NCBI GenBank assembly: GCA_965197585.1
Contig: OZ240215.1
Location: 256,001 to 320,000 of the forward strand
Reading direction: 5' to 3'
DNA length: 64,000 bases
DNA from: Dehalococcoidia bacterium
Lineage (GTDB): Bacteria > Chloroflexota > Dehalococcoidia > Plut-88900
A program made the translations under genes and the position numbers. Below the pieces are notes generated by a model. That model was not told the origin of the DNA and searched no databases. It saw only the letters and a list, made by a program, of their open reading frames with translations. Shown piece after piece: positions 5,091 to 64,000 of the stretch (position 1 is its first letter; each line of letters opens with the position of its first letter).

Positions 5091-5158
5091 CCAATTAGTG
5101 ACGGAGGAGAATGTCGTATAGTCCTGCGCCCTCGTTCTGCGAGGGCGAGGGAATAGCC

Positions 5159-5440: not shown

Positions 5441-5759
5441 CACAAAATTATGCTTCGATGGCCACACGCACCGAAGCGCCGCTGATGGCAGCGACCTGTC
5501 CTACCTGGGCGGCGTTCTGCCTCAGGACTTCCCGGAGCGCCTCGAAGGACTAAAGGAGGCCAGCGGCCTCTCCTGGGGTGCGATGGCCAGGTCCATCGGA
5601 GTGGACCGCAAGCAGCTGATGAGGTGGCGCAAGAAGGGCACTGAACCGTGCGGAGGGGCGATGCACGCCATCTTCCGCTTCGCAATCCGGATGCCCGACG
5701 GCCTGGCCATCCTCATGAGCGAGAGATTCGAGAAAACCCTCTTTAGGGAGGGACGCTAG
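5427..5759 (+). CDS. XRE-like HTH regulator
   Basis: FPERLEGLKEASGLSWGAMARSIGVDRKQLMRW; SD GGAGG. Confidence 0.75.
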   Translation: MNSSNTKLCFDGHTHRSAADGSDLSYLGGVLPQDFPERLEGLKEASGLSWGAMARSIGVDRKQLMRWRKKGTEPCGGAMHAIFRFAIRMPDGLAILMSERFEKTLFREGR

Positions 5760-5944
5760 ATGCACGGCCCTGCCGGGCGCATGGCGCAACGGCGGCACGG
5801 CGGGGCCGGTTAGAGACGGCTACCGGGCATTCACCCCATCCGTCGGTGCCCGGGGCCAAGCACAGACTTTTGACCTGGGCCAAAGGCCTGACGAGTTACT
5901 AAAAGACCAATACTTTGCTACCACGAATCGGAGGACATGAAGAA

Positions 5945-6178
5945 ATGATGACAATACATGACAGACTGCTGAGGCGTCGACAGGTTGAGGAAATCACGGG
6001 CATGAGCCGCTCGTCGATCTATCGGCTGATGCAGGACGGTGAATTCCCCCGGCCCGTAAGGATCGGCCCTGCCGCCGTCAGGTGGAGGTCGAGCGATATC
6101 ACGGCATGGTTGGAGTCACGGCCGGTTACCAGGAGTGAATTTGACCCGCCGAATTCGGCCTGGAAGCGGCCTTCATAA
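5945..6178 (+). CDS. AlpA-family excisionase/regulator
   Basis: LLRRRQVEEITGMSRSSIYRLMQDGEFPRPVRIG. Confidence 0.9.
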   Translation: MMTIHDRLLRRRQVEEITGMSRSSIYRLMQDGEFPRPVRIGPAAVRWRSSDITAWLESRPVTRSEFDPPNSAWKRPS

Positions 6179-7528: not shown

Positions 7529-7618
7529 TGGCGGAGGGAGTGGGATTCGAACCCACGGTACGCTGACGCGCACGCCGGTTTTCAAGACCGGTGCCTTAAA
7601 CCACTCGACCATCCCTCC
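7529..7618 (-). tRNA. tRNA-Ser (anticodon TGA)
   Basis: GGAGGGA acceptor, anticodon arm CCGGT-CTTGAAA-ACCGG, long variable arm, GGTTCGAATCC, encoded CCA; 90 nt. Confidence 0.97.
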
Positions 7619-37630: not shown

Positions 37631-38842
37631 TTAAATTACTTTCGCTTCCCTCAGTCGAGCCATCTCCTTCGGACTCAAGCCCAGGTTGTTCACGTAGATA
37701 TCCTCATTATGCTCTCCGAGAAGCGGAGCCCGACTCAGTTGAAAGGGCGTATCGGTCATCTTGAACGGAGCGCCGGGATAGGTCTGCCGCCCCGCGTGTG
37801 GATGTTCGACGTCCACCCAGAAGTCCCTTGCGGCCAGCTGGACGTCGCTCATCAGTTGCTCACAGTTGTTGAGCCTCCCTGACGGTATCCTCAACTCTTG
37901 GGCTCGCCTGACTATTTCGTCGGCAGTGTGTTCCATTAACCACGGCAGCAGGATATCGTCAAATTCATCCGCGATGTTCCAGCGGTCGTGACGGTCTGCA
38001 TATCTGGGCTCATCCAGCAGGTCGGGCCTCTCTATCAAGAGCATCAGGTTGTCGTACTGGTCGGGTGTGGCTATGCTGATCGAAACATATCCGTCCATGC
38101 ATGGATACAACGCCAGGGGATGTATCCCGACCGGATGGCGGTTGCCTGCTCTTTCATTCTGAATGCCCACGTGAGTCCAGACCACTATGGCGAATTCATG
38201 GAAATAGGCCATTGCCTCCATCACGGAAACGTCGATGTACTGCCCCTCCCCGCTCTCCTCCCGCCAGTAAAGCGCTGCGGCAATTGCATTGTAAGCTTGC
38301 ACCGCAGTCTCGTATTCCGGGATATGGCCGCTGCCCGTTAACGGTTCCCTGTCGGGCTCGCCGTTCATATACATCAGCCCCGTGACTGCGTAGCTGATCA
38401 TCGAGTTAGCTTTGTAGTCCCGATAAGGGCCCGTCTGCCCGAAACCCGTGATCGAGGTCATCACTAGACCCGGGTTGATGCCTTCCAAGGTGCCATAGCC
38501 CAGCCCCATCTCAGCCATCGACCCGGGCGGTAAGTCCTCCACTACCACGTCCGCCTTTGCAATCAGTTTCTTGAAAGTCTCCACACCCGAGGCGGTTTTG
38601 AGGTCGAGAGTAATGCTCTTCTTGCCCGTGTTCAGGTACAAGAAGGGAGCGCTGGTCTCCTGGTGGGGAACGTGGTCAAGGAAAGGGCCCGTCCTCCTGA
38701 AGCTATCGCCTCCGGAAGGGTTCTCTATCTTGATAACCTCCGCCCCGAATGAGGCCATCATCTTGGTGCAATAGGGAGCGGCCAACCCCTGACCCAGTTC
38801 CAGCACCTTTATCCCGTCCAGCGCCCCTTGAGTACTTGTCAT
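37631..38842 (-). CDS. CoA-transferase family III, partner subunit
   Basis: GAEVIKIENP.GD, NTGKKSITLDL, GFGQTGPY. Confidence 0.93.
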   Translation of the reverse strand: MTSTQGALDGIKVLELGQGLAAPYCTKMMASFGAEVIKIENPSGGDSFRRTGPFLDHVPHQETSAPFLYLNTGKKSITLDLKTASGVETFKKLIAKADVVVEDLPPGSMAEMGLGYGTLEGINPGLVMTSITGFGQTGPYRDYKANSMISYAVTGLMYMNGEPDREPLTGSGHIPEYETAVQAYNAIAAALYWREESGEGQYIDVSVMEAMAYFHEFAIVVWTHVGIQNERAGNRHPVGIHPLALYPCMDGYVSISIATPDQYDNLMLLIERPDLLDEPRYADRHDRWNIADEFDDILLPWLMEHTADEIVRRAQELRIPSGRLNNCEQLMSDVQLAARDFWVDVEHPHAGRQTYPGAPFKMTDTPFQLSRAPLLGEHNEDIYVNNLGLSPKEMARLREAKVI

Positions 38843-38849
38843 AATGCCT

Positions 38850-39290
38850 TCAGTTAACGGGGACGCTGGCCTTGCCCACTATCACCTTGTCCCCATCCTG
38901 ATTTTCCAGCCAGATGTCCAAATATACGTGGTCGGCAGCATCCCCTTCCGCCGGGTCTCTGACGACACCCTTGGCCGTTAGCTCATCTCCCCCGCAAACC
39001 CAGTTGATGAAAGTGCAAGATAAGTTGCCGCCTTTGAGCCAACGCTCACCAAATGAATTAAAGAGCATTTCCCAGCCCACCCTCATAGTGTCGACGCCCC
39101 CGGCCACGACATCCCGTGCCCCGAGCGAGTGGGCGGTTTCAGTGTCGTTATGAATGTTCTTTCCCGCGAACGATTGTCCCCACAGCGACTCCCTCCCCCT
39201 GCTGTTGGATATTATGTCCTCGGCTGAAATCTTCCTGGTCAATGAAGGGAGGCTAAACCCCGGTACCAACTCCCCCGCTGCGACTGTCAT
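38850..39290 (-). CDS. MaoC-like hotdog-fold dehydratase subunit
   Basis: NIHND..A...G...VVAGG. Confidence 0.8.
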   Translation of the reverse strand: MTVAAGELVPGFSLPSLTRKISAEDIISNSRGRESLWGQSFAGKNIHNDTETAHSLGARDVVAGGVDTMRVGWEMLFNSFGERWLKGGNLSCTFINWVCGGDELTAKGVVRDPAEGDAADHVYLDIWLENQDGDKVIVGKASVPVN

Positions 39291-39354
39291 ACTTTATCCC
39301 TTTCCTTTCGACGCCCATTCCAATAAGACTAACGCTCACTTTTTGTGGCATGCG

Positions 39355-39756
39355 TCATAGGCTTAAGAGCAGCGTATTCTTGCTTTTGACTATCTCCCGC
39401 CCGTCCTCGTCGCAAGTGGTCGTTTCAAATACCAGGAAGTCCTTGCCCCTCTTGATGAATTTGTCGGAGACCGCTCCGGTTACGATCAGATCCTTGCCGA
39501 TCATGGGTGGGTTGATGTAATGATTTTCGGCCTTGGTGTGGATGGCGTCCCCCACGTTGTATTGGATCATGAATGCTAGGGAATAGTCGTTGTCCGTAAG
39601 GGCGCTCGGTGCGATAGGGCTGTCCCCTGAATACCGAGAACTGCTCAGCATCTCCTTGGAGGCGGCAAACGCCACCATCTCCCGGGTCACCCTGTAACGA
39701 TAGGGCCCTATCGTTTCCCCCACCTGCGCATCTTCCAACTTAAGCTTTTCTGCCAT
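39355..39756 (-). CDS. MaoC-like hotdog-fold partner subunit
   Basis: DKFIKRGKDFLVFET..DEDGREI. Confidence 0.75.
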   Translation of the reverse strand: MAEKLKLEDAQVGETIGPYRYRVTREMVAFAASKEMLSSSRYSGDSPIAPSALTDNDYSLAFMIQYNVGDAIHTKAENHYINPPMIGKDLIVTGAVSDKFIKRGKDFLVFETTTCDEDGREIVKSKNTLLLSL

Positions 39757-40020
39757 AAAACATCCTTTGCAGCTATCTTGCTCGCCTGATTATCCACTAA
39801 GCGCTCTTACCTGGCATCGGTCGGTCTTGTACGACTCATTTTGTCGTAACTCTACCGTCCAGTCTCCATCCCTGCATACAGGTCTTGTACTGGGTGACAT
39901 CTGCGTTCCCGATGTCGATCAAAGGGCGACGGTACTAGACTCGACACACGGGTCGCTCTCCATCTGGCAAAGTTGACCGAAGTTGGGGCAGGGAATGACC
40001 CTACTTGGCCTTTGCCCCAT

Positions 40021-40071
40021 AAAAAGAAAGCGGTGAGGCCGGGCGACATTCTCATGACACCCGACCTCACC
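40021..40071 (-). terminator. Probable intrinsic terminator after the SBP gene
   Basis: GGTGAGG..CCTCACC hairpin followed on the minus strand by GCTTTCTTTTT. Confidence 0.6.
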
Positions 40072-40108
40072 AATTCTACTAATGACCTAAGACCAGCTCT
40101 CTACAGCT

Positions 40109-41542
40109 TTAGCTACCCGTAGTTTGCCAGGTGACGTAACGCTCAGTTTGCTCGGCGGTGACGCCGGTCTGCCATACTTCGTCCACTAGCCAGCCGTATT
40201 GGGCGTTAGCGGGTGAGGTGGGCAGGAACTGCCGCGCTTCGTCGAATTCCGGACCGGCAAGAAGCTCCCAGGATGCCTGGTTGATGGGGGAGTACTGGAT
40301 GTAGCGGGAAATCTGGTTGTTTATCTCCGGGAAGGAGAGGTATGCCATGATGAGCTGGGTAAGCTCAAACTTCTCCGGCTCGGCATCTCTCAAGCCGATG
40401 GGAATCACTTGGGCGAATGTGGTCATGAGGTGCCCGGCTTCCCAGGACATCTGCAGAGGATCGCCGTTAAGGATGGCTGCTCCGAAACGGCCATTGCCCG
40501 TGAGGCACATGTCCACCTCGCCTACGATCAGGAAGGTGGGGCAGTCGGAGGATCCGGCGGCATAGACGTTGATATGGGGCTTCAGCTCGTCCAGGTACGT
40601 GTAGGCTTCATCGATCTGTTCGAGGCTAAGGGTGCCGTCGGTTGTGCCTATGTGCTCGGGGTTTTCGCTCCAGTAGGCGGCCGTCACATAGCGCAGCCAC
40701 GTCCATCCACGACTGTCCAGAGCGCGGACGCCGGGGAAGGTCTCCACGTCAAAGAAGTCCTTCATGGACTTGGGCCGAGTCTCTTCGGTGTAAGTGTTCG
40801 TGCTGTATGCCAGCGGTTCGGAGGCTATTCCTCCTACGCCGGCGAAGTAGGCGTGGTCCCTCAGGATACCCGCAAAGCTCCGGTTGTCGACCACGCTCTT
40901 GTCCAGGGGTTCCAGGAGCCCGATCTCACCAAGTTCGGCGAAGACCGGAGTAGTCCCCAGGGCGAAGGTCCAGTCGAAGTTGCCGGTCTCGGCTATCAGT
41001 CGCAGCTTCGTATTCGGGTTGGTAGTCCCGTCCGCAATTACTTCAATGCCAAACTGTTCAGCAATGGGATCGAAATATGCCACTTGCTCTGCGGAAGTAT
41101 AGGCGCCGCCCCAAGTTCCGTAGGTTATGGTCTGGCCTCTGTAATTTTCCAGTTCCGCCTCTATCTCCTCGCGCGTCGCTGGATTTTCTATTGTCCAATC
41201 AGACGGGGGCCTTATAAGGCTCTCAGGCTCGGGCATCGCAGTGGGTTCCGGCATGGCGGTGGGCTCGGGCATTGCCGTGGGAACAGGTGTCGCCGTGGGC
41301 AACGGTGCCTCACCGGCGGCGGGGCCCTGTGGGCCTTGCGGGCCGGCGGGTCCGGCATCGCCTGTGGCGCCGGCTGCGCCGGCAACTCCGGAGGGACCGG
41401 CAGGACCTGGAGGGCCGGCAGGACCTGCACAGGCCGCTGCCACCAGTAGGACTATCAGCAGAATGCCCATAACCCCCAGGATGACGCGGCCCCTTGTCAT
41501 TTTCTTAGCTGTTTTTCCGATCTTGACCATTTTTCCTCCCAT
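40109..41542 (-). CDS. PotD-like substrate-binding lipoprotein with collagen-like stalk
   Basis: Lipobox VAAAC, 12 Gly-X-Y triplets, 3x PTAMPE, WGGAY, FFDVETFPGVRAL. Confidence 0.88.
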   Translation of the reverse strand: MGGKMVKIGKTAKKMTRGRVILGVMGILLIVLLVAAACAGPAGPPGPAGPSGVAGAAGATGDAGPAGPQGPQGPAAGEAPLPTATPVPTAMPEPTAMPEPTAMPEPESLIRPPSDWTIENPATREEIEAELENYRGQTITYGTWGGAYTSAEQVAYFDPIAEQFGIEVIADGTTNPNTKLRLIAETGNFDWTFALGTTPVFAELGEIGLLEPLDKSVVDNRSFAGILRDHAYFAGVGGIASEPLAYSTNTYTEETRPKSMKDFFDVETFPGVRALDSRGWTWLRYVTAAYWSENPEHIGTTDGTLSLEQIDEAYTYLDELKPHINVYAAGSSDCPTFLIVGEVDMCLTGNGRFGAAILNGDPLQMSWEAGHLMTTFAQVIPIGLRDAEPEKFELTQLIMAYLSFPEINNQISRYIQYSPINQASWELLAGPEFDEARQFLPTSPANAQYGWLVDEVWQTGVTAEQTERYVTWQTTGS

Positions 41543-41736
41543 ATCCTAAAAAGCGCCTCTTCTGTGGGCGCAAGTTCGAATTCTAGGTGTCCTAGGTTAA
41601 CCCGTCAAGCCTGTCAGAAGCGGGGCGCCACTCTCATCACCTTGGCAATACTGTTGACGCAACTTCCTTTTGACATTACCTTTGTACAATCAAACGGTAT
41701 ACTCCACATTCTTTGGAACAACTCAGGAGATGAATT

Positions 41737-42978
41737 ATGGGCAAGTCTTTTCCAAAAACGGGCTCCAACTGGGACGAGCTAAAAGACCAACTCACCGAGG
41801 CGCGACAAGGAGATATAAACTGGCGCACCGGTAAAATCTCAGGTCTGCTCTATTACGCCGGCGACGATGTTATACAGGTCGCCCACGACGCGTACGCTAT
41901 GTTCTTCAACGAGAACGCAGTCTATCCAAAGGTCTACCCGAGCCTCGCCAAAATGGAGGAAGAGGTTATAGACCTGAGCCTCGGGCTGCTTCACGGCGGA
42001 GAGAACGCTGCCGGCAGCATGACGACGGGAGGCACCGAAAGCATCTTCCTCGCCATAAAGTCCGCCCGAGACTGGGCCCGAGCCAATAGACCTATCGATG
42101 GCGCTCCTGAGATATTGACCTCGCGCACGGCGCATCCTGCGTTTGACCGCGCCGCCGAGCTCCTGGACATGAAAGTCGTAAGGGTAAACCCGGGCCCCGA
42201 CTTCCGCGCTGACGTCGACGCCATGTCCGACGCCATCACCGATAACACCATCATGATGGTCGGCTCAGCCCCGGAGTACCCGCATGGGGTTGTCGACCCC
42301 ATCGGCGACTTGGGAGAACTCGCCCAGTCCAGAGACCTCTGGCTCCACGTGGACTGTTGCATAGGCGGATTTATCGCGCCCTTTGTCAGGAAGCTGGGCT
42401 ATCCCATCCCCGACTTCGATTTCGCCATCCCCGGCGTCAGGTCCATCTCCGCGGATATACACAAGAACGGCTATGCGGCAAAGGGTGCATCCACGGTCCT
42501 CTACAGTGACGCCCAGTACCTGGAATACCAGGGATTCGTCTTCGACCAATGGTCTAAAGGCCTCTACTCGACCCAAACATTCGTCGGCAGCCGACCCGGT
42601 GGGGCCATAGCCTCCGCATGGGCGGTAATGAACTATCTGGGCGAAGAGGGGTATATGCGGATTGCGCAGGAAGTCATCCACATCAGGGAAGCGTTAATGG
42701 ACGGCGTTAATCGCATTGATGGCCTGGAGACATACGGAGACCCGCAGCTGACCATTTTCACCTACGGTTCCAGTGAATTCGATATTTTCGCCGTCGCAGA
42801 CGGCATGTCCGACTCAGGCTGGTACACGAGCCGCATCCAGGAACCCAACGCCATACACATGATGCTGTCCCTAATCCAGAAGCCGGTTGTCGAAGAATAC
42901 ATCAGCGATCTCTCTTACATTGTTAACAAGGTCAAAGAAGGCAAAATCGTGGCGGCTGACACGAAAGTAGCCTACTAG
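41737..42978 (+). CDS. PLP-dependent group II decarboxylase / sphingosine-1-phosphate lyase-like
   Basis: TTGGTESI, LHVDCCIGGF, SADIHKNG, GSRPGG. Confidence 0.88.
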   Translation: MGKSFPKTGSNWDELKDQLTEARQGDINWRTGKISGLLYYAGDDVIQVAHDAYAMFFNENAVYPKVYPSLAKMEEEVIDLSLGLLHGGENAAGSMTTGGTESIFLAIKSARDWARANRPIDGAPEILTSRTAHPAFDRAAELLDMKVVRVNPGPDFRADVDAMSDAITDNTIMMVGSAPEYPHGVVDPIGDLGELAQSRDLWLHVDCCIGGFIAPFVRKLGYPIPDFDFAIPGVRSISADIHKNGYAAKGASTVLYSDAQYLEYQGFVFDQWSKGLYSTQTFVGSRPGGAIASAWAVMNYLGEEGYMRIAQEVIHIREALMDGVNRIDGLETYGDPQLTIFTYGSSEFDIFAVADGMSDSGWYTSRIQEPNAIHMMLSLIQKPVVEEYISDLSYIVNKVKEGKIVAADTKVAY

Positions 42979-43364
42979 CGCCATCGCCCGTAGATAGGTC
43001 TGGTGCAGAAAAAGTGCCTGAAGCCTAAGCCCTAGCCTAGCTGCACGGCCCTCCGACCCAAATCCCGGCTGCGTACTGAGTTACTTTAGGAAGTCGGGGC
43101 CTGTTTATGGGCCCGCTTTCTCGCTGCCTCTGATACGTTCGCGAAGCGGGCCGGGCCGCCGACACTGCCCGCAAGCATCTCAGCTGCCATCCTCTCTCAG
43201 TTGTTCTTGCCCACTCAAGAGCAGACCAAAATTAACCCCTCACCCGGTCACGAGGTGATGCGTCTCCACTACGCAATGTCTAGCCGCGCGCCCTTATGCC
43301 AAACCAGACATGAGTGCAGGGTAGTCTCGGAAAGGTTGGGCTAGCTTCAATAGGAAGGGGTTCT

Positions 43365-43600
43365 GGTAGACCAAGCGGTACTGTAGACAGAACTTTTCAG
43401 TGGGTAGTGCCACTTTAGGAAGTGCAGTCGTAAAGGGCGAGGAAATTTTCACGGTTCAAATCCGGCTAGGTGACCCCGACCGTATAAAAGGCAGAACCTT
43501 TACGATGAATTTTGGATTGGCACTTTGAGGAACAGTGCCAGTAGGTCGCTGCTTGGTTCGAGTCCAGTTAGGTGGGCCTGGCTTGACGGTAGACAGAACT
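43365..43600. repeat. Three tandem att-like sites, GGT-N3-CC-N12-AGRCAGAAC
   Basis: Starts at 43365, 43469, 43571 (spacing 104/102); two are preceded by GGTTCRARTCC. Confidence 0.75.
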
Positions 43601-45156
43601 CCGCCGTTCAGGGCCATGTCCTCGGTTCTCTTCCCCGGTATGGGGCTGTCGTCCGGCATGGGCACCGTATACCGGACGACAGCCTTGCCGGGCATGACGA
43701 CGATCTCCTTGACGAAGGTCTCGATGAAGGCCCTGCGCTCGGTCAGCTCGCTGTCCTTCAGGAACTCGCTCATGTCCTGGGCGTAGGTAGTGATGGTCTC
43801 CACGTCGTCCAGGACCTCCCTGCGCTGGGAGAGAATCGCCCTTGCCTCTTCCGCCGAAGCCTCAAGACGCCGCTGCCGCTCCCGGTGCTCTTTGATGCGG
43901 TCTGAGGCGTCGGCCATGTCGGTGTCGGTGGTCTCCACCAAGTGCCAGATGCGGCCCAGCTTGCGCTTCACGTCCTCAAGCTCATCCTCGATGGTCTCCA
44001 GCCGCTTGCGCTGCTCGGCGGCAACGCCGTCCATCCGTTCGTCCACCACCTTTACCAGGGCGCGGATGTTGCCGTCGGTGAGGATGTTGGAGCGAATGTT
44101 GCCGACGATCATCTCCTCGAATCGCCGGGCGTTGATCCTCGGCGAATCGCAGGCTTCCTTGCCGCGCTTCATGATGGACTGGCAGACGTAGTAGGAGAAC
44201 TGGCCGCTCTTGGCCTCCTGCCCGCTGAACGCCCGGTCGCACTCCTTGCACTTGACCAGACCGCTGAGCAGGTAGGTGCTCCCGACGCGGCGGGGGTGAG
44301 TCCTCTTGGGCGCCCTTGAGCGCATCAGCCGTTTCACGCGGCGGAATTGGGCCTTGGAGACGATGCTGGGGAACGCCTTCTCGACGCGCACCGGGTCGGC
44401 CTTGTCCTTGGCGTTCGTGCCCCAGACCAGAGCGCCTGTGTAGGCTTCGTTTCTGAGTAGGAGATGGACGCCGTTCTTGGACCAGAGCTTTCCTGCGGGG
44501 CTGGCGATGCCCTCGTCGTTGAGGGCGCGGGCGATGTCCAGCATCCCCCTACCGGCCTCGGCCATGTCAAAGGCGCTCTTGACGACACGGGCCGCATCCT
44601 CGTCGGGTTCCAGGGTGGGGCGCTTCTTGGGTCCGTCCTGGACGTAGACCTTGCGGAAGCCGTAGGGCACCCTGCTGGCGACCCAGAAGCCGCGAGACGC
44701 CGCCTCGCGCATCCCCCGCGTGACCTCCTGGGCCAAATTTTCGCTGTAGAATTCGTCCACGCTCTCGATGATGCCCTCAAGCAACCTGCCGGTGGCGGTG
44801 TCCTCGGCTTGCTCGGTTATGGAGACGACGCGGACGCCCTTGCGCCTGAGCATGGACTTGAAGGCGACGGCGTGCTCTCGCTTGCGTGTGAACCGGCTGA
44901 ATTTCCAGACCAAAATCTCCTGAAAGGGAGCATTGGGCTTGGCGGCCTCGTCGATCATCTTGCGGAACTCGGGGCGGTCGGCGATGCGCCCGCTCTCGGC
45001 CTCGTCCACGTACTCGCGGGCGACGATGTAGCCGTTCTTCTCGGCGTAGTCCCTCAGCGCCCTGAGCTGGGCGGAGACGGAGAGGTCCACGTCCTGGCGG
45101 TCGCTGGACACCCTGGCGTAGAGCGCTGCGGGGGTGTAGTCGGTCTTATCATTCAT
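43456..45156 (-). CDS. Large serine recombinase (resolvase + recombinase + Zn-ribbon/coiled coil)
   Basis: YARVSS, SRFTR, YLLSGLVKCKEC, YYVC; SD AAGGAGG; 3' end reads through att-like sites. Confidence 0.95.
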   Translation of the reverse strand: MNDKTDYTPAALYARVSSDRQDVDLSVSAQLRALRDYAEKNGYIVAREYVDEAESGRIADRPEFRKMIDEAAKPNAPFQEILVWKFSRFTRKREHAVAFKSMLRRKGVRVVSITEQAEDTATGRLLEGIIESVDEFYSENLAQEVTRGMREAASRGFWVASRVPYGFRKVYVQDGPKKRPTLEPDEDAARVVKSAFDMAEAGRGMLDIARALNDEGIASPAGKLWSKNGVHLLLRNEAYTGALVWGTNAKDKADPVRVEKAFPSIVSKAQFRRVKRLMRSRAPKRTHPRRVGSTYLLSGLVKCKECDRAFSGQEAKSGQFSYYVCQSIMKRGKEACDSPRINARRFEEMIVGNIRSNILTDGNIRALVKVVDERMDGVAAEQRKRLETIEDELEDVKRKLGRIWHLVETTDTDMADASDRIKEHRERQRRLEASAEEARAILSQRREVLDDVETITTYAQDMSEFLKDSELTERRAFIETFVKEIVVMPGKAVVRYTVPMPDDSPIPGKRTEDMALNGGVLSTVKPGPPNWTRTKQRPTGTVPQSANPKFIVKVLPFIRSGSPSRI

Positions 45157-45173
45157 GGGTGCGTCCTCCTTGC

Positions 45174-45371
45174 TCATTCCTGGTCGTTCCTGCGGGCCTC
45201 GGCCCGTTGGCGGCGCTCCTGCCGCAGCCACTCCCGCTCCTCCATGTACAGCCGGATGGCCTCGCGGAGGAACTCGCTCATGGTGCGGTCATCCTCCTTG
45301 AGCATCTGCTGCACCTGCTCCGCCAACTCCGGGGGCATGGAGAAGCTGATGACCTTCGTGGTCCTGGGCAT
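45174..45371 (-). CDS. CopG/ribbon-helix-helix regulator
   Basis: KVISFSMPPEL...RTMSEFLREAIRLY. Confidence 0.85.
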   Translation of the reverse strand: MPRTTKVISFSMPPELAEQVQQMLKEDDRTMSEFLREAIRLYMEEREWLRQERRQRAEARRNDQE

Positions 45372-45410
45372 ATTTTTTACCCTTTGCAGTAATACCTAGT
45401 CATACTCTTA

Positions 45411-45439
45411 TCATGAACGAACCGGGCCGCCGTTGTCAA
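45411..45439 (-). promoter_or_regulatory. Probable sigma70 promoter for the RHH-recombinase operon
   Basis: TTGACA followed ~18 nt later by CATGAT on the minus strand. Confidence 0.4.
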
Positions 45440-45597
45440 GGGGGGACAGCATGAAGAACGGGGGCAGCTCGGGCGGGAGCTTGGGAGCAGCCTCGGTCGT
45501 TCCGCCAGGTTCCGTGGGGAGTCCGCCCTCCGGCGTCTCCCCTCCGCGTTTCGTGATTCGTTCAAGCAGCTTCTTCAATTCGCTCGTTTCCTTTTCT

Positions 45598-45915
45598 CTA
45601 GGGGGTTGGGAAGTCCACGAGGCCGCTGCTGAGCAGCGCGGCCACGCCCTTGGCCGACAGGGCCAGAACCAGCCCGACCACCGCCATGACGACGGCGGTC
45701 TTGGCCTTGCCCCCGCCCCGCTCCTCGCCCCCCTCGGCCATCAGGATGAAGCCGGCCCAGACGATGGCGAAGAGGCAGAGGCCGGCGGCGGCGTAGACCA
45801 TCGCCGTGAGCACGCGGTCGAACTGGCGGAGCATCTCCTGCTCCTCCGGCGGGGCCGCGCCGGTGGTCGCCAGCGCAGCCCCGGCCAGAATCGTCATTGC
45901 CAATACCCGCCTCAC
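45598..45915 (-). CDS. TrbC/VirB2-like pilin
   Basis: Two TM helices around GGGKAK; GTGA coupling with the upstream gene. Confidence 0.65.
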   Translation of the reverse strand: MRRVLAMTILAGAALATTGAAPPEEQEMLRQFDRVLTAMVYAAAGLCLFAIVWAGFILMAEGGEERGGGKAKTAVVMAVVGLVLALSAKGVAALLSSGLVDFPTP

Positions 45916-47642
45916 CAGGGCCACTCCCATCCCAGCAGGTCGAACCACTGGCGCAGGCCGTCTGCGGGCTCCTGCTCGGCAGGCGGGTCCTCCGGCTCCG
46001 GCTGGGGCAGGACCAGCGCCTCGAAGGGGTCGTCGCTGCCGACGCCGGACGACGCAAGGGCGAGGGACTCGTCCCTGCTCCCCGTGACGGCCGCCCGCTC
46101 CACCACCTCGGCCTTCACGTGCTCGGGGTGGACGATGGTGAGCGTGACCTGCTTGTCGATCGTCCTGGCCGGCACGTATGCGTAGGCGTAGGCGGAGACG
46201 GTGTGTTCCGTCGTGGTGCCGTCGTCGTGGGTGACGGTGATGGTGTCGCTGTCGCTGTCGGAGTCGCTGGCCCCCGGGCGGTACAGGCTCACCGTCTCGG
46301 TGCGCTCCTCCGTCCGCTCCGGGTGGTGGGTGAGCACGGTCAACGGGGGGATGGGTATGCTGAGGCTCGCCTCCAGGCTCACGTCCACGCTCACGGCGTG
46401 AATCGCCTGACCATTCCCGATGGGCAGCCGGAAGCGGGTCTCGCCGTCGGGGATGAAGGCGACGCTTGTGCTCGACGCTCCCGTCGAGGCGGTGACGGTT
46501 CCAGTGACCGCCGTCACCTGGGCGTCCATCAGGGACGTCTGGGTGACGCTCTCGTGCCCGGCCACCGTCTGGAGCTCGACCGGGTGCTCGATGGACGTGA
46601 CGCACTCGGCCGTGATGACGCCGCTGACTGCTCCCGGCGTCCAGCCCAGGGACGAGAGCCTGACGTCGCAAAGCTCCCCGTCGATTTCAGGGAGCGGGTA
46701 CGGGATCTGGTCATGCTCGACGGTCAGCGCCCCGGCCTGGCCGAGGGTGTCCTCCCAGGACACCGTGAAGGACGGCGCGGGTCCGTGCAGGGGGAGGGAG
46801 TAGTCGATGCGCTCCCCCTCGGCGAGCGTTGCCGAGCCCCAGAAGCGCAGCCACGTTCCCTGCGGCCCGCCGAATGCCCGCACCCGGATGTCCAGGGCGG
46901 TGGCGGCCCGAAGGGTGACGGCGGCACGGTCGCCGGAGACGGTGAGCCCCTCGACGAATATCCGGCGTCCCTCCACAGGCTCGGTCAACTCGAAGTCGAT
47001 CTCGTCCCGCCAGGGCTCGTGGTCGTCGGCCAGGGCAGACTCCGGGACGGCCACGACCGCCGCCATGAGGACGGCCAGGGCCACGACCGGAATCCAGCCC
47101 ATGCGGGGCTTCCTGCGTCTGCTCTGCAAGGTCTCGGCTTTATGCCCTTGTCCGCGCCCGTTCCCGGCGTCCTTGTTCCTGCGCTTGCCGAACCAGCGCA
47201 TCCGCCCGTTGCGGCGCTCCTTGTTCTTGCGGGTCTTCCTGTTCTTGCGCAGCCTCGCCAGGGCGCGTCCGGCGCGTTTCGCCATCAGGCTCAGCGGGCA
47301 GGGGCCGCTCCTGACCGGCTGCGGGGGCGCGGGCGGCTCGCTCCTCACCAGCTGGGAGACCGGCCCTGCGTAGAGCCGCGCCCCCAGCCGGTACTTCAGC
47401 AGGTCGGCGGCCACCAACGGCAGCCGCCGACCGCCAATCTTCCCGACGACCATGACGATGCCGACCAGTCCGAAGAGGACGGCCAGGGCCATCCGCACCT
47501 CGGACGGGCCGACCGGGGCGTAGCGGTATGCGCCGTAGGACAGGGCGCACACCGCCGTCACCGCCACGACCTGCGGGAAGGTGAATCCCAGCAGCACCCG
47601 GTCCTCGGCCTGAACGTGAGTCGGTACCTCGTGTTCTCTCAT
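45912..47642 (-). CDS. PrgI-family protein fused to a large extracytoplasmic domain
   Basis: HEVPTHVQAEDRVLLGFTFPQ N-terminus, TMs, basic linker, beta-rich acidic C-terminus. Confidence 0.7.
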   Translation of the reverse strand: MREHEVPTHVQAEDRVLLGFTFPQVVAVTAVCALSYGAYRYAPVGPSEVRMALAVLFGLVGIVMVVGKIGGRRLPLVAADLLKYRLGARLYAGPVSQLVRSEPPAPPQPVRSGPCPLSLMAKRAGRALARLRKNRKTRKNKERRNGRMRWFGKRRNKDAGNGRGQGHKAETLQSRRRKPRMGWIPVVALAVLMAAVVAVPESALADDHEPWRDEIDFELTEPVEGRRIFVEGLTVSGDRAAVTLRAATALDIRVRAFGGPQGTWLRFWGSATLAEGERIDYSLPLHGPAPSFTVSWEDTLGQAGALTVEHDQIPYPLPEIDGELCDVRLSSLGWTPGAVSGVITAECVTSIEHPVELQTVAGHESVTQTSLMDAQVTAVTGTVTASTGASSTSVAFIPDGETRFRLPIGNGQAIHAVSVDVSLEASLSIPIPPLTVLTHHPERTEERTETVSLYRPGASDSDSDSDTITVTHDDGTTTEHTVSAYAYAYVPARTIDKQVTLTIVHPEHVKAEVVERAAVTGSRDESLALASSGVGSDDPFEALVLPQPEPEDPPAEQEPADGLRQWFDLLGWEWPW

Positions 47643-47671
47643 GTCTTTCTTTCCTCCCTTCTCACGCCGGC

Positions 47672-47980
47672 CTAGCCGGTGGGGGTGCTGCTGGTGCCGC
47701 CGCCGGGGGCTTCCGGCTCGGGCAGCACGTCGTCGATGTCGATTCCGGGGTCCACCACGGCGTTCATCACCAGCTCCACGACGCCGTAGGCGACCAGGGC
47801 CAGGACGATGCCCGCCAGGGCGGTCATCATTGCGCTCTTGCCGCGCTCCATCTGGTGGGGCGCTCCGCTGGCCGTCAGGTACAAGTACGCGCCGTAGATG
47901 AAGAATCCGACGCCCACCGCGCCGACGATCCCCAGCAGGATGCCCACCAGGTTCGATATGGTCTGTGTAAGGTCTTCCAT
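47672..47980 (-). CDS. TrbC/VirB2-like pilin
   Basis: GAYLYLTASGAPHQMERGKSAM..ALAG; SD GAGGAG. Confidence 0.8.
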   Translation of the reverse strand: MEDLTQTISNLVGILLGIVGAVGVGFFIYGAYLYLTASGAPHQMERGKSAMMTALAGIVLALVAYGVVELVMNAVVDPGIDIDDVLPEPEAPGGGTSSTPTG

Positions 47981-48129
47981 TCCTTGCTCCTCTCTGTTAT
48001 CGAGCGTTCCGCTCGTCTCTATCGGTCGAAGTCCGTAAGCTCCGTTAGCTGCACATCTCTCCGCCTCCGTCGTGGTATTGGTCGGCGCTCTGTCGTCCGC
48101 GCCTGTGTGATTTCGTTGTCTCGGTCGGG

Positions 48130-49104
48130 CTACTCCCCGCTGCTCCTGGGCGCTCCGCCGCCGTCTCCCCCTGCCGATGGGGTCGCCATCGAGGCCGCCG
48201 AGCTCAGGCCGCTGGCTGCCGCCGACACCCCCGCGCTGGCCGCAATCGCTCCGACGGCCATGCCGCCCGGCCCTCCCGCCGCCCCGCTCATAAGCCCGAT
48301 GGTCCGGGCCGAGCGCATCAGCGACGACGGCAGGTTCATGCCGAAATAGAGCATCGAGAGCCAGGAGTCGAAGGTCCCGGCGTTGCCCATCATTGAGGGC
48401 ACCCGGGTCGCCATGTAGACGAAGGCCAACGACATGAGCAGCTTCCAGATCAGGTCCTGCACCGGCTCGAAGGCGGCGACCGACGCGAACTCGTTGAGGA
48501 AGCCGATTCCCAGGGCCAGGGCGATGAGCTGCACCGCCTGCTGGAACACCGTCGTCATGAACAGCCGCAGCCAGTGCCGTCCCCAGCCCGCCGTGTGGGG
48601 CAATATCCACAGCCCCAGCGCAATCGGGGCCAGGGCCAGCAGGATGTCTATGAGGGCCAGGCGCAGCACCATCTGCACGATCACGTAGAGGACGAAGAAG
48701 CCGTAGACCAGGTAGAGCAGGGCCAGGAGTTGCGCCATGCCCACGCTCCCGGCCTGGACGGCTCTGAGGAACGTGTCGAGGGGAGCCCTGAGCAGGTCTC
48801 CGGGGGTGACGCCCAGGGAGACGGCTATGAAGCCGGACACGGCGTCGGCCACGTCGAGGACCAGGGCGCACCACCACAGGGAAGACGCGGCGGCCACGAG
48901 GCCGAGCACGAGGCGGGGCACCATCTCCCGCCAGCCCGTCTGCTGGCGTCCAAGGTGCTCGCTCACGATGAAGCTCAGGCCCATCCAGCCGAGGATGACC
49001 ACCAGGGCGCCGGTTGTTATGGCCCAGACGACCATCCACGCCTGGCGGACCAGCTCGTGGGCGTAGGTGAGGTCGGGAGGGGTGCCGGTGAGGATGTCGC
49101 TCAT
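48130..49104 (-). CDS. VirB6/TrbL-like membrane protein
   Basis: Multi-TM, LALAPIAL..W..PHT..W, Gly/Ala/Ser-rich tail. Confidence 0.8.
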   Translation of the reverse strand: MSDILTGTPPDLTYAHELVRQAWMVVWAITTGALVVILGWMGLSFIVSEHLGRQQTGWREMVPRLVLGLVAAASSLWWCALVLDVADAVSGFIAVSLGVTPGDLLRAPLDTFLRAVQAGSVGMAQLLALLYLVYGFFVLYVIVQMVLRLALIDILLALAPIALGLWILPHTAGWGRHWLRLFMTTVFQQAVQLIALALGIGFLNEFASVAAFEPVQDLIWKLLMSLAFVYMATRVPSMMGNAGTFDSWLSMLYFGMNLPSSLMRSARTIGLMSGAAGGPGGMAVGAIAASAGVSAAASGLSSAASMATPSAGGDGGGAPRSSGE

Positions 49105-49107
49105 CGG

Positions 49108-49722
49108 CTACCCGCCCCCGCAGTTGTCGGCGTCCTCGCCGGACGCTCTTTCAACGACGCCGCAGAGGGTGCCGTGGACTCCCTCGACCACCCAGCCGGC
49201 GAAGGCCCTCGCCCAGCGCGCCGGGTTGAGGGCGGAGAGGATCTTGTCCCAGATGCGGCCCGGCTCGTGGAAGGGAATGACGCTGTAGAACTCGCCCCGC
49301 TTGCCGTCCTCGGCGACGGCCAGCATCACCAACAGGTACGCCCTGTCGCGGTCGAGGTCGGGCTGCTCGTCCAGGTCGGGGTACTCCCACGAGTACTCCC
49401 AGCCGTCGCTGCGCTCCTTCTCGCCCCCCTTGACCCGGTACATGGCGCTTATCCAGTCGCCGGTGTCGGCGTCGCGGACGGCGTAGAAGAGGTCCGCGAT
49501 CTCGCGGTCGAAGACGGGCCGGGCGACGAACTCGCCGCCCTTCTTGCGCTCGACGAACTCCCGGTCGGCGTTGACGAGGGTTATCTCGTCGCCGGGCGGG
49601 GTCTGGGCCAGGGCGATGTTGCTTGCGGGGATCGCCAGGAGCGCCGCCAATAGCAGCGCGGATGCCAGGGGAATAAACCGACTGAAAGACCGGAGTTTCG
49701 ATTTCAGCGCCAAGATGTTCAC
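49108..49722 (-). CDS. Exported hypothetical protein, first gene of the tra operon
   Basis: SD GGGAGG, GTG start, signal peptide ALA|Q. Confidence 0.75.
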   Translation of the reverse strand: MNILALKSKLRSFSRFIPLASALLLAALLAIPASNIALAQTPPGDEITLVNADREFVERKKGGEFVARPVFDREIADLFYAVRDADTGDWISAMYRVKGGEKERSDGWEYSWEYPDLDEQPDLDRDRAYLLVMLAVAEDGKRGEFYSVIPFHEPGRIWDKILSALNPARWARAFAGWVVEGVHGTLCGVVERASGEDADNCGGG

Positions 49723-50159
49723 CTCCCTGCCTATTGCCGCGAATCAGCGATTCGCCGCTGTCCCGAAAGAGTGTGGACAACCGGGACGCCCTGCATAACT
49801 ACTTGAAGGGGTACTCATATGAGCGCCCCTATAGGCCCTTGGTTTGGACACCCCTTCCGTGATGTCATTGGGGTGTACAGAGAAAGGACTTTGGCGACAA
49901 TTTGTCGTGGGTCGTGGTTTCGTAGCTAAAACAGGGGGAAATCCCCCCCTACAGGACGTAAAAAGTGAACACTTTGTCGTAAGGGCACGTTCCGCCCGCA
50001 GGGTGCAAAACGGGCCATAGTGGTGAACAAATCGCAGCCAGGAAAATCGGCGAAATCGAGCAAAACCACCCACACTGGTTGACAAGACGCAGCCCGTGGA
50101 AATTGGGGCCGGCGTCTGGGGCCGGGCCGGGGTCGAAAGTCTGGAATGGAGGCGTGTCG

Positions 50160-53852: not shown

Positions 53853-56800
53853 CTAAGGCGTCGGGTTGACGTAGTTGGACCAGCCGCTCAGGCCCGCCGC
53901 ATTGATGGCCTTCACCCGGTACACGTGCTTGACCCCCGCGGTGACGCCGGTGTCGGTGAAGGTCGTCGCCGTGCTCTCGGTGTCCGCCACGTACACCAGC
54001 AGGGCGCTCTCGCCCTCACTGGGGCGACGCCGCAGGACCTGGTAGCCCGTGATCGAGTCGTCATTGGGGGCCGTCCAGCTCAGCACGATGTGCCCGTCCG
54101 CGTTGACCGTCGCCGTCAGGCTCGTGGGCGCGGGCGGAGGGCTTTCGGGCGTCTGCTGGTCGTCTCCGGCCTCTTCCTGCTCCTCTTCCTCCGGCCCGGG
54201 GAGGGTGACCTGCACCCCTCCGGACAGCGTTGTCCCGCCCTCCGTGCAGATTCCGCCCGAACCGCACGCCTGGCCGGTCACGAGGCTGAACACGATGTCG
54301 TCGGAGCCGTCGGGGTCCAGGAAGAAGATCCAGGCGTTCTCCAGCCCGTCCTCCTCGTGCTGTCTCACGCTCCTCACCGCGGCGCCGGTCAACGACAGCG
54401 AGGGCGTCGTCTTCTCGAACGATGCCACCGCCATGCTGAAGGTGACTATCACCTGGGGCCGGTCGTCTGCGCCATTGTGGCGAGCCGATTGGAACCGGCT
54501 GTCCGGCCGTGATGCCGTGAGCGGCACCGGCGCCGCCGTCACCTCGGCAGTCGCCGCGCTGGTCAGGGTCTCCTCGTTATCGGCGTCGTCGGTGAAGGTG
54601 ACCCGCACCTGGATGGTCTTTCCCTGCTCGCTGGCGGTCAGGGTGTAGGTGGAGCCGGTGGCCCCGCCGATGTCCGACCCCCCTGCGATCCACTGGTAGC
54701 TGTAGGAGACGCTAGTCAGTCCGTCCTGGTCGGCAATGTTCGACGTATCCACCGTAAGGGTCTCTTCCACCTGGGGCGTCCCGCCGATGGTGGGCTTGCC
54801 CGTGGCCTCTCGGTTGGGCGCCGCCGTAACGGCCACGGTAGCCGCACTGGTCAGGGTCTCCTCGTTATCGGCGTCGTCGGTGAAGGTCACCCGTACCTGG
54901 ATGGTCTGTCCCTGCTCGCTGGCGGTGAGCGTGTAAGTCGAGCCGGTGGCCCCCGCGATGTCCGACCCTCCGGCCAACCACTGGTAGCTGTAGGAAACGT
55001 TGGTCAGGCCGTCCTCGTCTGTGATCGAGGACGTGTCCGCGGTGAGGGTCTGCTCAACCTGGGGAGTGCCGCTGATCGTGGGCGCGCCTGCGGCTGACGT
55101 GTTGGTGGGCGGCGCCTCGGCGGGCCCCGTTACGGTCGCAGTGGGACTGTTGGTCAGCTGCCGCGGGCTGTCTTCCCTGGTGCAGATTGCTCCTGTGGTG
55201 GTGCAGGACCGGTTGGCGGGGAGGGTGATGCCAACGTCGCTATTGTCGTCGGGTTCGACGGTGATCTCCCAAAGGTCGTTGCGTCCGTCGACTCTGCGTG
55301 CCCCGGTGACGTCGCCTTCAGAGAGGCTGAAAGCATCGTCGCGCATGTTCACGTAGCTGACGCCGACATCTTCACTGAAGAGGACGCGGAAGGTGAAGGC
55401 TGTGGAGCCGTCGTGGCTGTCGGGCAGGCCCTGGAATGCGGCCGTGAGGAGCGCCTGAGCCGCCGCCGCCACCGCCTCAGTGGCCTCGCTGGTCAGGGAT
55501 TCCTGGTTGTCCGCATCGTCGGTGAAGCTCACCTGCACCTGGAAGGTGTAGCCCTCGTCCGTCGGGGCGAGTGTGTAGGTCGAGCTCGTCTCTCCCAGTA
55601 ATACAAGGATGACGCCCGACTTGCTGGCTAACCACTGGTATCTGAAGACGGCGTTCTCCAGCCCGTCCTCGTCGTCAATGGCCGACGTGTCCGCCGTCAG
55701 CGTCTGGCCCACCTGCGGCGTGCCCGTGATGGCGGGCAGGCCCGTCGGCTCGGAATTCGGCCTGGCCGCCACGATCACCGTACTGCGGCTGGTCAGGGAC
55801 TCGGTGGTACCGCGGTCGTCGGTGAAGGAGACCCTGACCGCGAAGGTCCGTCCCTTGTCGGCTGGGGCCAGTGTGTAGGTCGAGCCGGTCTCTCCCGGCA
55901 TTTCGACGTTGATGTAGTAGCTGGTCCCGGTGTTTGCGTCGACGACCGACTGGTTGTGGAGCCACTGGTACTCGAAGGTTGCGTTGGTCAGCCCGTCGGC
56001 GTCATCGATGGCCGACGTGTCCGCCGTCAGCGTCTCGCCGACCTGGGGCGTCCCCGTGACGGCCGGAAGGCCCGTCGGCTCGGTGTTCGGCGGGGGCGCC
56101 ACGGCCACCGTGGCCTCGCTGGTCAATGTCTGCTCGTAGTCGGCGTCGTCGGTGAAAGTCACCCTGACCTGGAAGGTGGAGCCCTCGTCATCTGGGATAA
56201 GCGTGTAGGTCTGGCCCGTCTCTCCCGGTATTTCAATGCTGAGGATGTTGCTGGTTCCGGTTACGTCGTCGATGACCGTCTGGCTGGAAATCCACTGGTA
56301 GCGGTAGGCCACGCTGGTCAGCCCGTCGGGGTCGTCAATCGCCGAGGTGTCCGCCGTGAGCGTCTCGCCGACCCGGGGCGTGCCGTTGACGGAGGGAAGG
56401 CCCGTGGGCTCGGAATTCGGGGCGGCGGCCGCCACCGCCTCCGTGGCCGGGCTGGTCAGCGTCTCGCTGTACCCGCGGTCGTCGGTGAAGGAGACCTCCA
56501 CGTGGAAGGTGTGGCCCTCGTCCGCCGGGACAAGCTTGTAGGTCGAGTCCGTCTCTCCCGCATATTCATACGTGGTGGACGACTTCGTGGCGAACCACTG
56601 GTACCTGAAGACGGCGTTCTCCATCCCGTCGGCGTCCTCGATGGCCGAGGCGTCCACGGTCAGCGTCCGGCGCACCTGGGGCGTCCCGCCGATGGTGGGC
56701 TCCCCGGTTGCCAAGGTGTTTGGCGGGGGCGCCACCGCCTCCGTCGGCGCGCTGGTGCGGCTCTCCTGGTTGTGCGCATCGTCGGTGAAGGAGACCTTGA

Positions 56801-63865: not shown

Positions 63866-64000
63866 CGGTCACAGCGATAACCTCAGTGCGGATGACATTC
63901 AGCCGGCGTCCTCTGGAGGATGAGTGTGAAGCTTTAGGTCCAGATGAACGCCTGGAAGTTCCTCGTTCTGGGCTACTGCATTACCACGCCACCTTTCGGT

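Follow-up and report, generated by a model that had tools for sequence, protein, structure and literature searches.

How can three tRNA-like attachment sites come to stand in a row, about 103 bp apart, at the 3' end of one recombinase gene? The question is raised by a stretch of 64,000 nucleotides from an uncultured Dehalococcoidia bacterium (assembly GCA_965197585.1, contig OZ240215.1, positions 256,001 to 320,000 of the forward strand), which is called the window below and equals G000 256001-320000, where G000 stands for the 3.43-Mb single-contig assembly, G001-G009 for related genomes and L-numbers for single loci. An open frame of the window encodes a large serine recombinase (LSR), named recombinase X, and its end runs over the stack of sites. 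A first-pass annotation, made from the letters alone, had offered two readings of the stack: a record of serial integrations in which each ~103-bp unit supplies a new tRNA-mimic target, or a set of swappable recombinase C-termini. As described here, each site is in all likelihood a hybrid junction left by an LSR, and the units between the sites look like the ends of recombinase genes cut off at integration.

Three probable hybrid junctions in a row

The motif GGT-N3-CC-N12-AGRCAGAAC, which had drawn attention to the stack, matches the + strand of the window exactly at 43365, 43469 and 43571 in a pattern scan, with spacings of 104 and 102 nt. If one mismatch is allowed, there are four matches in the window, the fourth being at 1728 with one mismatch, against 0.06 expected, and none of 100 shuffles reached four. 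A repeat search places the three copies in identical register; Tandem Repeats Finder gave no rows for 42500-44000, because the units are too diverged. The T-loop-like sequence pointed out in the first-pass annotation is also where it was said to be: GGTTCAAATCC begins at 43453 and GGTTCGAGTCC at 43555, each 16 nt 5' of site 2 or site 3. In these two sites, 19 nt counted from the start of GGTTC lead to a dinucleotide, which is followed by a 24-nt arm ending in GAAC. In site 1 the dinucleotide before the 24-nt arm is AG, and native flank occupies the position of the T-loop.

Each site can be read, with good confidence, as a hybrid LSR attachment junction of the attL/attR type (the left and right junctions of an integrated element), consisting of a 19-nt target-type half, a 2-nt centre and a 24-nt element-type arm. 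The crossover centre is predicted to correspond to acceptor positions 71-72 of a tRNA, with GGTTC of the target half and GAAC of the element arm as the outer ends, and strand exchange would occur at the 2-nt centre. On the + strand, the predicted crossover dinucleotides are AG at 43368-43369 for site 1 (24 nt inside the outer GAAC of the arm, with a partner AG at G000 383582-383583), GA at 43472-43473 for site 2 (19 nt after the GGTTC start and 24 nt before the GAAC end) and GG at 43574-43575 for site 3 (the same 19/2/24 geometry, with a partner GG at G000 324097-324098). These are the dinucleotides that had been predicted before, and they follow the 19/2/24 geometry. Between the centres lie two units on the + strand. 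Unit 1, the putative severed tail module of a Y-type element, spans 43370-43471 and is composed of an arm (43370-43393), a stop codon (43416-43418), a spacer and a 19-nt T-loop-type half-site (43453-43471). Unit 2, the orphan tail module of a putative Z-type element, spans 43474-43573 with its arm at 43474-43497, its stop codon at 43526-43528, a spacer and a half-site at 43555-43573. The distance from the end of an arm to the next centre is ~78 nt. Beyond site 3, the arm at 43576-43599 (- strand), an exact match to an 18-nt arm motif, ends the recombinase gene and encodes VLSTVKPG.

Is there a real tRNA gene, or another structured RNA, at the stack? Neither ARAGORN nor Rfam reports a tRNA or any other RNA family there, in agreement with the absence of an intact tRNA noted before, and the sole tRNA in the window is tRNA-Ser at 7529-7618; even at E<=1, the matches of Rfam between 40000 and 47000 are only microRNA-like chance matches. 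The stop codons of units 1 and 2 had been assigned to related hairpins. Local inverted repeats do exist, but when nine units were folded and compared with shuffles, z scores ranged from -1.87 to +1.17 and the predicted folds differed, so that no unusually stable hairpin, nor one common to related units, was found. The 12-mer ACTTTAGGAAGT (first copy at 43412-43423) does recur, as had been noticed, in a second exact copy at 43083-43094 on the + strand. An nhmmer search of 42979-43364 with the unit profile (E<=10, filters off) detected no unit around this second copy, which may be a relic of an older unit or a product of chance.

A probable attachment site inside the recombinase frame

The open frame of recombinase X (P0001, 43456-45231, - strand) encodes an N-terminal resolvase catalytic domain (Resolvase, PF00239, 1.9e-32), a recombinase domain (Recombinase, PF07508, 2.2e-20) and a zinc ribbon (Zn_ribbon_recom, PF13408, 2.4e-12) in Pfam searches, which is the composition of an LSR. 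It has two paralogues of 65-66% identity, whose 3' ends overlap the antisense 3' ends of tRNA-Glu(CTC) and tRNA-Glu(TTC). All recombinase-related loci that were collected come from Dehalococcoidia or Chloroflexi assemblies. In 60 of 80 related loci, those in which our own arm pattern has hits and on which the counts of arms and target sides are based, the recombinase gene ends with a 24-nt arm (GTTCTGTCTACCGTCAA...), then a dinucleotide, GG in 48 and CC in 12, and then a variable partner. What is this partner? In 22 of the 60 loci the arm abuts, in antisense, a tRNA called by ARAGORN (Met, Ile, Val, Ala or Lys), and in 24 the end of a T-loop heptamer lies 19 nt (in 22 loci) or 20 nt (in 2 loci) past the centre, 19 nt being also the distance at sites 2 and 3. 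At least 10 of the 60 loci have recombinase genes converging on one 50-bp site. It is therefore probable that we are dealing with one LSR family, abundant in Dehalococcoidia, which targets the 3' end of tRNA genes, and this family seems to recombine sites having only one target-type half, hybrid sites included.

It is to be noted that the frame of P0001 crosses sites 3 and 2 (...VLSTVKPGPPNWTRT... and ...VLPFIRSGSPSRI before the stop), just as the first-pass annotation said. Does this part belong to the enzyme? Paralogues and the 120 closest database homologues align with P0001 only to about residue 560; all 120 are alike up to VLSTVK-GG and then split. Sorted by patterns of our own, 46 of the homologue tails run antisense through a T-loop (..G[TI]RT..), 21 run antisense through a second recombinase gene, 16 are of native type within 36 residues, 34 are of other kinds, among them a few native-like ones (e.g. 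VLRMFRYSVSI), and in 3 the motif is missing. The stretch of P0001 3' of 43576 is accordingly best described as a probable fusion, a read-through into antisense T-loop 3 and unit 2 rather than native coding sequence, and the crossing of two sites as a by-product of integration.

Then, what does an uninterrupted gene look like? Locus L092, from a relative, has a 50-bp site with perfect inverted repeats of 19 nt within the recombinase frame, and this frame runs through the site and stops 11 codons later (...DRTIFEMWLGSL / VLSTVKNGGPILTVDRTIFEMWLGSL before the stop). The far end of the element that carries recombinase X, element X, encodes a comparable tail (...DRTIFEMWFSLTV / GPPNLTIDRTIFEMWFSLTV). 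On the + strand of the window, units 1 and 2 are translated as GRPSGTVDRTFQWVVPL and GDPDRIKGRTFTMNFGLAL, both followed by a stop and both in agreement with the peptides quoted in the first-pass annotation; the tail of unit 1 ends in ...TVDRTFQWVVPL (...DRTFQWVVPL, then stop), and is of the same type as the native tails of the homologues, and that of unit 2 ends in ...GRTFTMNFGLAL / ...KGRTFTMNFGLAL. These observations make it likely that the attachment site of the free element (attP), 50 bp in length, lies within the 3' end of the recombinase frame itself. The intact gene would run from one arm through the centre into the other arm and end ~11 codons later in a conserved tail (..DRTFxWxVxL, then stop). 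Because attP is inside the reading frame, integration would cut the gene: the recombinase end would become fused to target-encoded sequence, usually antisense tRNA, and the last ~20 codons, the tail module, would end up at the other end of the element. For the same reason the + strand tails of the stack would be severed recombinase 3' ends, not incidental peptides.

The idea of swappable C-termini survives in this altered form. To judge from the homologue tails, the C-terminus swaps between the excised and integrated states and not among the three sites, since these are direct repeats with different arms and centres and no shuffling is to be expected among them. Whatever function we infer for the tail has to be put conditionally. 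One conceivable function, which we offer tentatively and consider unlikely in its full form, is that a native tail of ~13-20 residues, encoded across attP and present only in the excised form, senses the integration state and sets the direction of recombination without a classical directionality factor; the units would then be evolved, portable landing pads shaped like tRNA 3' halves, for which one good half-site is enough, so that nested or stacked islands are built and solo modules remain as their record.

Two elements, two pairs of ends

Where does the island begin? The last syntenic gene before it encodes a pyridoxal phosphate (PLP)-dependent decarboxylase of the host (41737-42978, + strand, Pfam PF00282), which has 73-93% DNA identity in G001-G009, and similarity to these genomes ends at its stop codon. 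The island is missing from four relatives (G001, G002, G003 and G005), where a tRNA-Glu(CTC) locus comes within 0.4-1.3 kb after the decarboxylase gene. In G000 this tRNA gene is at 383578-383654, and the long syntenic match in the four relatives begins exactly at its 3' end, G000 383578. Therefore, ~84.2 kb have been inserted at the 3' end of tRNA-Glu(CTC) in G000, and the comparison with empty-site genomes, which had been suggested as a check, places site 1 at an island boundary. The native intergenic flank downstream of tRNA-Glu(CTC), which would be the host half of the original target, occupies 42979-43367 and ends at the site 1 centre. In G003 and G001 the flank runs through TGGTAG into antisense tRNA-Glu(CTC), and in G000 TGGTAG is followed by the site 1 arm. 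Around the site 1 centre, identity to the relatives is 62-70% in the left 60 nt and 55-57% on the right; as a baseline for all breakpoints, unrelated 60-mers are 56% identical on average and 68% at maximum. The site 1 arm has its last 14 nt, and also the centre AG, in common with the arm that stands between tRNA-Glu(CTC) and a second recombinase, recombinase Y. Being paired with recombinase Y, which abuts tRNA-Glu(CTC), site 1 is most probably the distal boundary of the whole composite island of ~84.2 kb, that is, the tail end of a Y-type element.

Site 3 has a partner as well. An arm at G000 324073-324096, on the opposite strand, faces the arm of site 3 and differs from it at one of 18 positions, and GG is the centre in both cases. 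We hence regard site 3, with some assurance, as the left junction of element X, a 24.5-kb element bearing the recombinase gene (- strand) that extends from 43576 to the window end at 64000 and on to window-equivalent 68096, its partner lying just past the window end and its right junction in L007. The same centre is found at both junctions in the two cases, AG/AG for site 1 with tRNA-Glu and GG/GG for site 3 with G000 324097-8. Sequence common to the two ends of an element is restricted to TGGTAG or GGTGGGCC (6-8 bp).

Element X has 60-70% G+C, and its cargo includes proteins like pilins of type IV secretion systems (T4SS) and a surface protein of 2824 residues. Two open frames adjoining the recombinase, 45598-46671 and 47672-49039 (both - strand), have a C-terminal T4SS_pilin domain (PF18895), the first just below the family cut-off. 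The frame of 2824 residues (53853-62327, - strand) has a weak SWM repeat and, at its C-terminus, a fibronectin type III domain. For most of the remaining frames of the element, Pfam gave no family. Tail ends are also found back to back inside the island, at G000 324.1 and 329.6 kb. The arrangement of two tail arms joined back to back at one centre was seen at G000 181.5, 329.6 and 460.6 kb, in L034 and L035, and at window-equivalent 68097, and each such arm is continued outward by a tail-like frame that stops after the usual distance.

For site 2 no such pair was found. Scans of G000 298.9-384 kb with patterns of four arm types gave no partner, no Z-type recombinase was found in the island, and a tblastn search with P0001 over G000 324-331 kb gave only matches of E>1. 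Site 2 is an orphan, and the scan for distal attachment sites that had been proposed was successful for site 1, with its partner beside tRNA-Glu(CTC), and for site 3 (G000 324073-324098), but not for site 2.

The units as a dispersed family

If a unit is defined from one centre to the next, it consists of an arm, a tail, a stop codon, a variable spacer and a half-site of the T-loop type, the last letters of which are GGT. With iterated nhmmer, 14 such units, four of them partial, were found in G000 and 16 in 15 loci of relatives, the latter being a biased sample picked for matching the array. The stop column is almost invariant in the units, and stop and T-loop are the most conserved parts after the arm. 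Many loci have modules homologous to unit 2 in which tail length and stop position are unchanged, and the mimic at the end of unit 2 has a T-arm like that of tRNA-Val(GAC).

How do the borders of a unit behave between genomes? G001 has a copy of unit 1 with 92% identity, which ends at the next centre. Around the site 2 centre, the window and G001 are 95% identical in the left 60 nt and 63% in the right, the centres being GA and TG, respectively, and the arms being different. At the third T-loop centre of another array, at G000 191.8 kb, the values against G003 are 90% on the left and 55% on the right; the G003 counterpart of this array bears another recombinase, which has 55% identity to P0001. 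Since the breaks in homology from one genome to the next coincide exactly with the predicted centres, the half-site at the end of a unit is supposed to have served as the target of the next junction. In the 191.8-kb array, units 1 and 2 stand in the same order with 75% identity over 156 nt, and the order is also the same in G002.

Some further loci deserve mention. L001 (G000 191600-192100, - strand), a paralogous array, consists of a Y-like and a Z-type unit and then a third T-loop, whose core is GGTGGGCC; after it comes a perfect hairpin of 34 nt and no arm, and this T-loop could be a landing site not yet occupied. What lies beyond the 191.8-kb array has no match in G001, G002, G003 or G005, which is uninformative either way. 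L030 of G003 (2941-3260) has a lone Z-type unit where G000 2445831-2446050 has none, in flanks of 88-93% identity; the net difference is 82 bp, and the comparison is not used as evidence as the junction alignment is ambiguous. Units of a further type, type 4, at G000 154988, 428744 and 499740 have in common a left flank of ~40 nt ending in a T-loop-like half-site, and therefore further unit types may escape the profile. A further serine recombinase, the fourth and a distant one with 27% identity, lies ~3 kb from the type-4 copy at 499.7 kb.

How was the stack built?

A series of integrations would explain the stack as follows. A Y-type element entered tRNA-Glu(CTC), and the tail module of unit 1 would mark its distal boundary. 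The mimic at the end of unit 1 would then have been joined to a Z-type tail module, unit 2, and so have become the target half of site 2, and the mimic at the end of unit 2 would have been joined to another tail arm, of type 4. Later, element X would have been inserted between the unit 2 mimic and the type-4 arm, and its recombinase gene would have come to abut the T-loop in the way seen at real tRNA targets. The serial integration that had been imagined is in this way kept for units 1 and 2, whose mimics were reused as the breakpoints at the centres indicate, but not for site 1, which has no mimic and uses native flank of tRNA-Glu(CTC). The order of these events is our own reconstruction, as is any account of how the remainder of the elements behind units 1 and 2 disappeared, and we have much lower confidence in the exact route of stack formation than in the reading of the junctions. 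As origins of a solo unit, nested insertion followed by loss, recombination at an internal pseudo-site, and exchange between two hybrid sites are all candidates.

Several points weigh against the history of serial integration. Neither a Z-type recombinase nor a partner arm of site 2 was found in the island, and therefore a simple nested history needs the later loss of two element interiors. The target before the arrival of element X was a hybrid of a T-loop half and another tail arm, and no characterised large serine integrase is known to use a hybrid site without a directionality factor. Tail modules beside intact recombinase genes mostly have no clear T-loop (element X and six type-4 junctions), so the mimic may not be native to every module. 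The order of units 1 and 2 recurs at G000 191.8 kb and in G002, and therefore the stack may predate the present locus. Recombination activity itself is predicted from sequence. Finally, the assembly is a metagenome-assembled single contig with an estimated contamination of 6.9%, and an independent contig covers just 42837-43400, where it shows no difference.

The recurring order leads to another possibility, namely that the stack was pre-assembled and that the Y-type element brought units 1 and 2 at its tail end as an inherited fossil cassette. Only two local events would then be needed, the entry of the Y-type element into tRNA-Glu(CTC) and that of element X into the third T-loop. The order of Y-like unit, Z-type unit and T-loop core at G000 191.8 kb and at the orthologous G002 locus speaks for it, and a Y-like unit followed by a Z-type unit is also found in L026, and a type-4 unit followed by a Z-type one in L024. 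The copy of unit 1 in G001 does not fit well, because it is joined at the same centre to a different arm, with TG for GA, and therefore the site 2 junction has turned over recently; likewise, G000 191.8 kb and G002 have their unit 1' and the arm in common but diverge ~40 nt past the start of site 2'. On balance, we hold a pre-assembled stack to be the less probable course, though one to be taken seriously, and it is a variant of serial integration and not a contradiction of it. What about an artefact of assembly, in which units and recombinase genes of several community members were misjoined? Apart from the contamination estimate, the great abundance of recombinase-like sequence in the same samples and the break of short-read contigs at 43400 might raise such a suspicion. 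Yet the outer pair and the inner pair each have matching arms and centres at both ends, and a chimeric join is therefore an unlikely source, as it would not produce such pairs. Comparable stacks occur in other assemblies or places (L023, L024 and G000 191.8 kb), and the contig that agrees with the window over the flank and site 1 comes from a public run, which may be the source sample itself. Altogether, a misjoin is very improbable.

Even harder to believe are two explanations in which integration plays no part. In one, the locus is a shufflon-like switch, and the resident recombinase exchanges its C-terminus among three cassettes in place; the frame does cross sites 3 and 2, and each unit has a tail-like coding piece. 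However, serine recombinases need matching centres, and the three sites all point the same way on one strand, no copy being inverted, and each has its own arm and its own centre (AG, GA and GG). The tails and the recombinase gene are encoded on opposite strands, and the tails of homologues vary with the context of integration, not with a local switch. In the other, which we consider equally far-fetched, the units derive from a tandem array of tRNA genes now decayed, or represent a structured non-coding RNA, and their likeness to attachment sites is secondary. Units 1 and 2 indeed have a T-loop-like GGTTCRAxTCC and an acceptor-like stretch, and ~78 nt is near the length of a tRNA. But neither ARAGORN nor Rfam recognises anything there, the folds are neither stable nor common, conservation falls on the arm, a fixed stop codon and the half-site and not on paired stems, and the breakpoints between genomes fall at the centres.

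Four public sequencing runs, all in the form of contigs, were also consulted. Among the joints listed (15 of 73), none crosses sites 1-3 and none is an excision joint; contigs cannot show rare products, and the ends of element X, 24.5 kb apart, are outside the 20-kb range within which a joint could be placed. Contig depth summed over four runs (X4, X1, X6 and X7) is in the tens at 38000-43212 and in the thousands at 43614-50000, but this step at 43.6 kb is a sum over many organisms and not evidence on the locus, and neither are the parts without cover; since the sum includes other organisms, recombinase-like sequence must be very common in those samples. In a contig of run X6, sequence like that of the window around 49838 is joined via seven extra letters to the arm at 43582, so an X-like recombinase has a different neighbour there.

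Relation to known systems

Taken as a whole, the system is one of LSR islands at stable-RNA genes, which are of a known kind. In Dehalococcoides, the islands at ssrA have a serine recombinase of ~540 residues, DsiB, encoded at the island edge on the reverse strand beside the attachment site, and are inserted in the T-loop region of the transfer-messenger RNA (tmRNA) gene with 20-bp direct repeats at their boundaries; they stand in tandem downstream of the target, some without an integrase, and a six-gene module by the DsiB-type integrase includes a small second serine recombinase, DsiA (PMC3146451). They are the closest known system to the present one, come from the same bacterial class, and are likened to it in enzyme class, in the position of the LSR at the element edge, in a tRNA-like 3' target, and in tandem elements of which some are without an integrase. 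Unlike them, the present islands target several ordinary tRNA genes and mimics, with the centre in the acceptor stem (71-72) and not in the T-loop, and their ends share ~6-8 bp instead of a 20-bp direct repeat. The in-frame attachment site and the solo units of ~100 bp belong to the present family and do not appear in the island description given in PMC3146451. The tmRNA gene of G000, at 1082944-1083296, is far from all the sites studied. No domain of a small second serine recombinase was found in 45912-47642, 45598-46671 or 47672-49039 (all - strand) of element X; other frames had no Pfam match, the search covering a subset of the small frames.

Integrases that carry the attachment site in their own gene are known from another enzyme class. 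Among them are IntP of myxophage Mx8, a tyrosine recombinase, and the archaeal 'suicidal' integrases, the targets of which are tRNA genes. The attachment site of Mx8 is located within the integrase gene, and the integrase altered by integration is described in a review as remaining active with changed properties (PMC6070905). The suicidal integrases of SSV type, tyrosine recombinases found in archaea only, have the site in a gene that is partitioned at integration, after which the integrase is probably inactive, and the complete gene is argued to act like a directionality factor in a review that mentions tRNA 62 times (PMC8371274). P0001 is a serine recombinase and resembles the Mx8 and SSV enzymes in this one respect without being a member of either group. 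Unlike Mx8 IntP, it would use a 50-bp palindromic site with a 2-nt centre, and the stacking of severed tails is not part of what that account of Mx8 describes; unlike in the archaeal integrases, only the last ~20 codons would be exchanged.

As for the phage enzymes, large serine integrases have an element-type half of 24 nt, longer than the target-type half of 19 nt, with a 2-nt centre between them, and in the characterised phage LSRs attP lies beside the gene, not inside it, and the targets are mostly protein-coding genes. The present family is like phiC31, Bxb1, A118 and SPbeta in its domain architecture and in its inverted half-sites around a 2-nt centre, with the element half ~5 nt longer (24 vs 19). 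It differs in that it apparently accepts targets with one good half-site, hybrids included. The 50-bp site agrees with the size of 40-50 bp stated for large serine integrase sites (PMC12286644). The word tRNA is absent from the preprint of Durrant et al. on thousands of LSRs. Our literature search, which covered mainly openly available full texts, found no serine recombinase with attP in its own frame and none that targets tRNA genes generally. These results should be set against the accretion of islands at tRNA genes. With tyrosine integrases, elements come to stand in a row at the tRNA 3' end, the hot spot, and short tRNA-like fragments remain at old boundaries, these fragments being direct repeats of the 3' end that recombination itself produces. 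Island accretion is also cited in PMC3146451. Unlike in the case of the tyrosine integrases, the tRNA-like pieces found here are 19-nt half-sites with which ~103-bp recombinase-tail modules end, and neither arm nor centre is constant among the repeats.

What the stack may mean

Two things would be new for this class of enzymes, as we have found neither described: an attachment site in the recombinase frame through which the C-terminal tail is exchanged, and tail modules of ~103 bp that are stacked and bear reused mimics of tRNA 3' halves. LSRs are the main tools for the insertion of large DNA cargo, and an enzyme that recognises the universal T-arm and acceptor end of many different tRNA genes, is content with one good half-site and has the attachment site in its own frame would, if true, be unusual for the class. 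A family of dispersed repeats of ~103 bp, with 14 copies in G000, would be explained at the same time. Moreover, the units offer a way of reading the history of island integration in uncultured Dehalococcoidia, which are related to organisms whose serine-recombinase islands carry dehalogenase genes. If the exchange of the tail regulates activity, the family would be a serine-recombinase counterpart of Mx8 IntP and of the archaeal suicidal integrases.

Neighbouring features

Other repeats and genes around the stack are of a different nature. A short dispersed repeat of ~150-650 bp (L017 8375-9660), distinct from the units, occurs at well over 100 places in G000 with 70-95% identity, and a repeat of this type sits between the decarboxylase gene and tRNA-Glu(CTC) in the relatives. 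Upstream of the decarboxylase gene, the frame at 40109-41542 (- strand) encodes a solute-binding protein of the SBP_bac_8 family; at its N-terminus there is a collagen-like Gly-X-Y stretch, the score of which is slightly below the Pfam cut-off. Public runs that hold the window stretch include sponge metagenomes. At the start of the window, a block of 63-73% G+C (G000 246-262 kb; window 1-6000) ends near tRNA-Ser(TGA) at 7529-7618 and may be another island at a tRNA gene.

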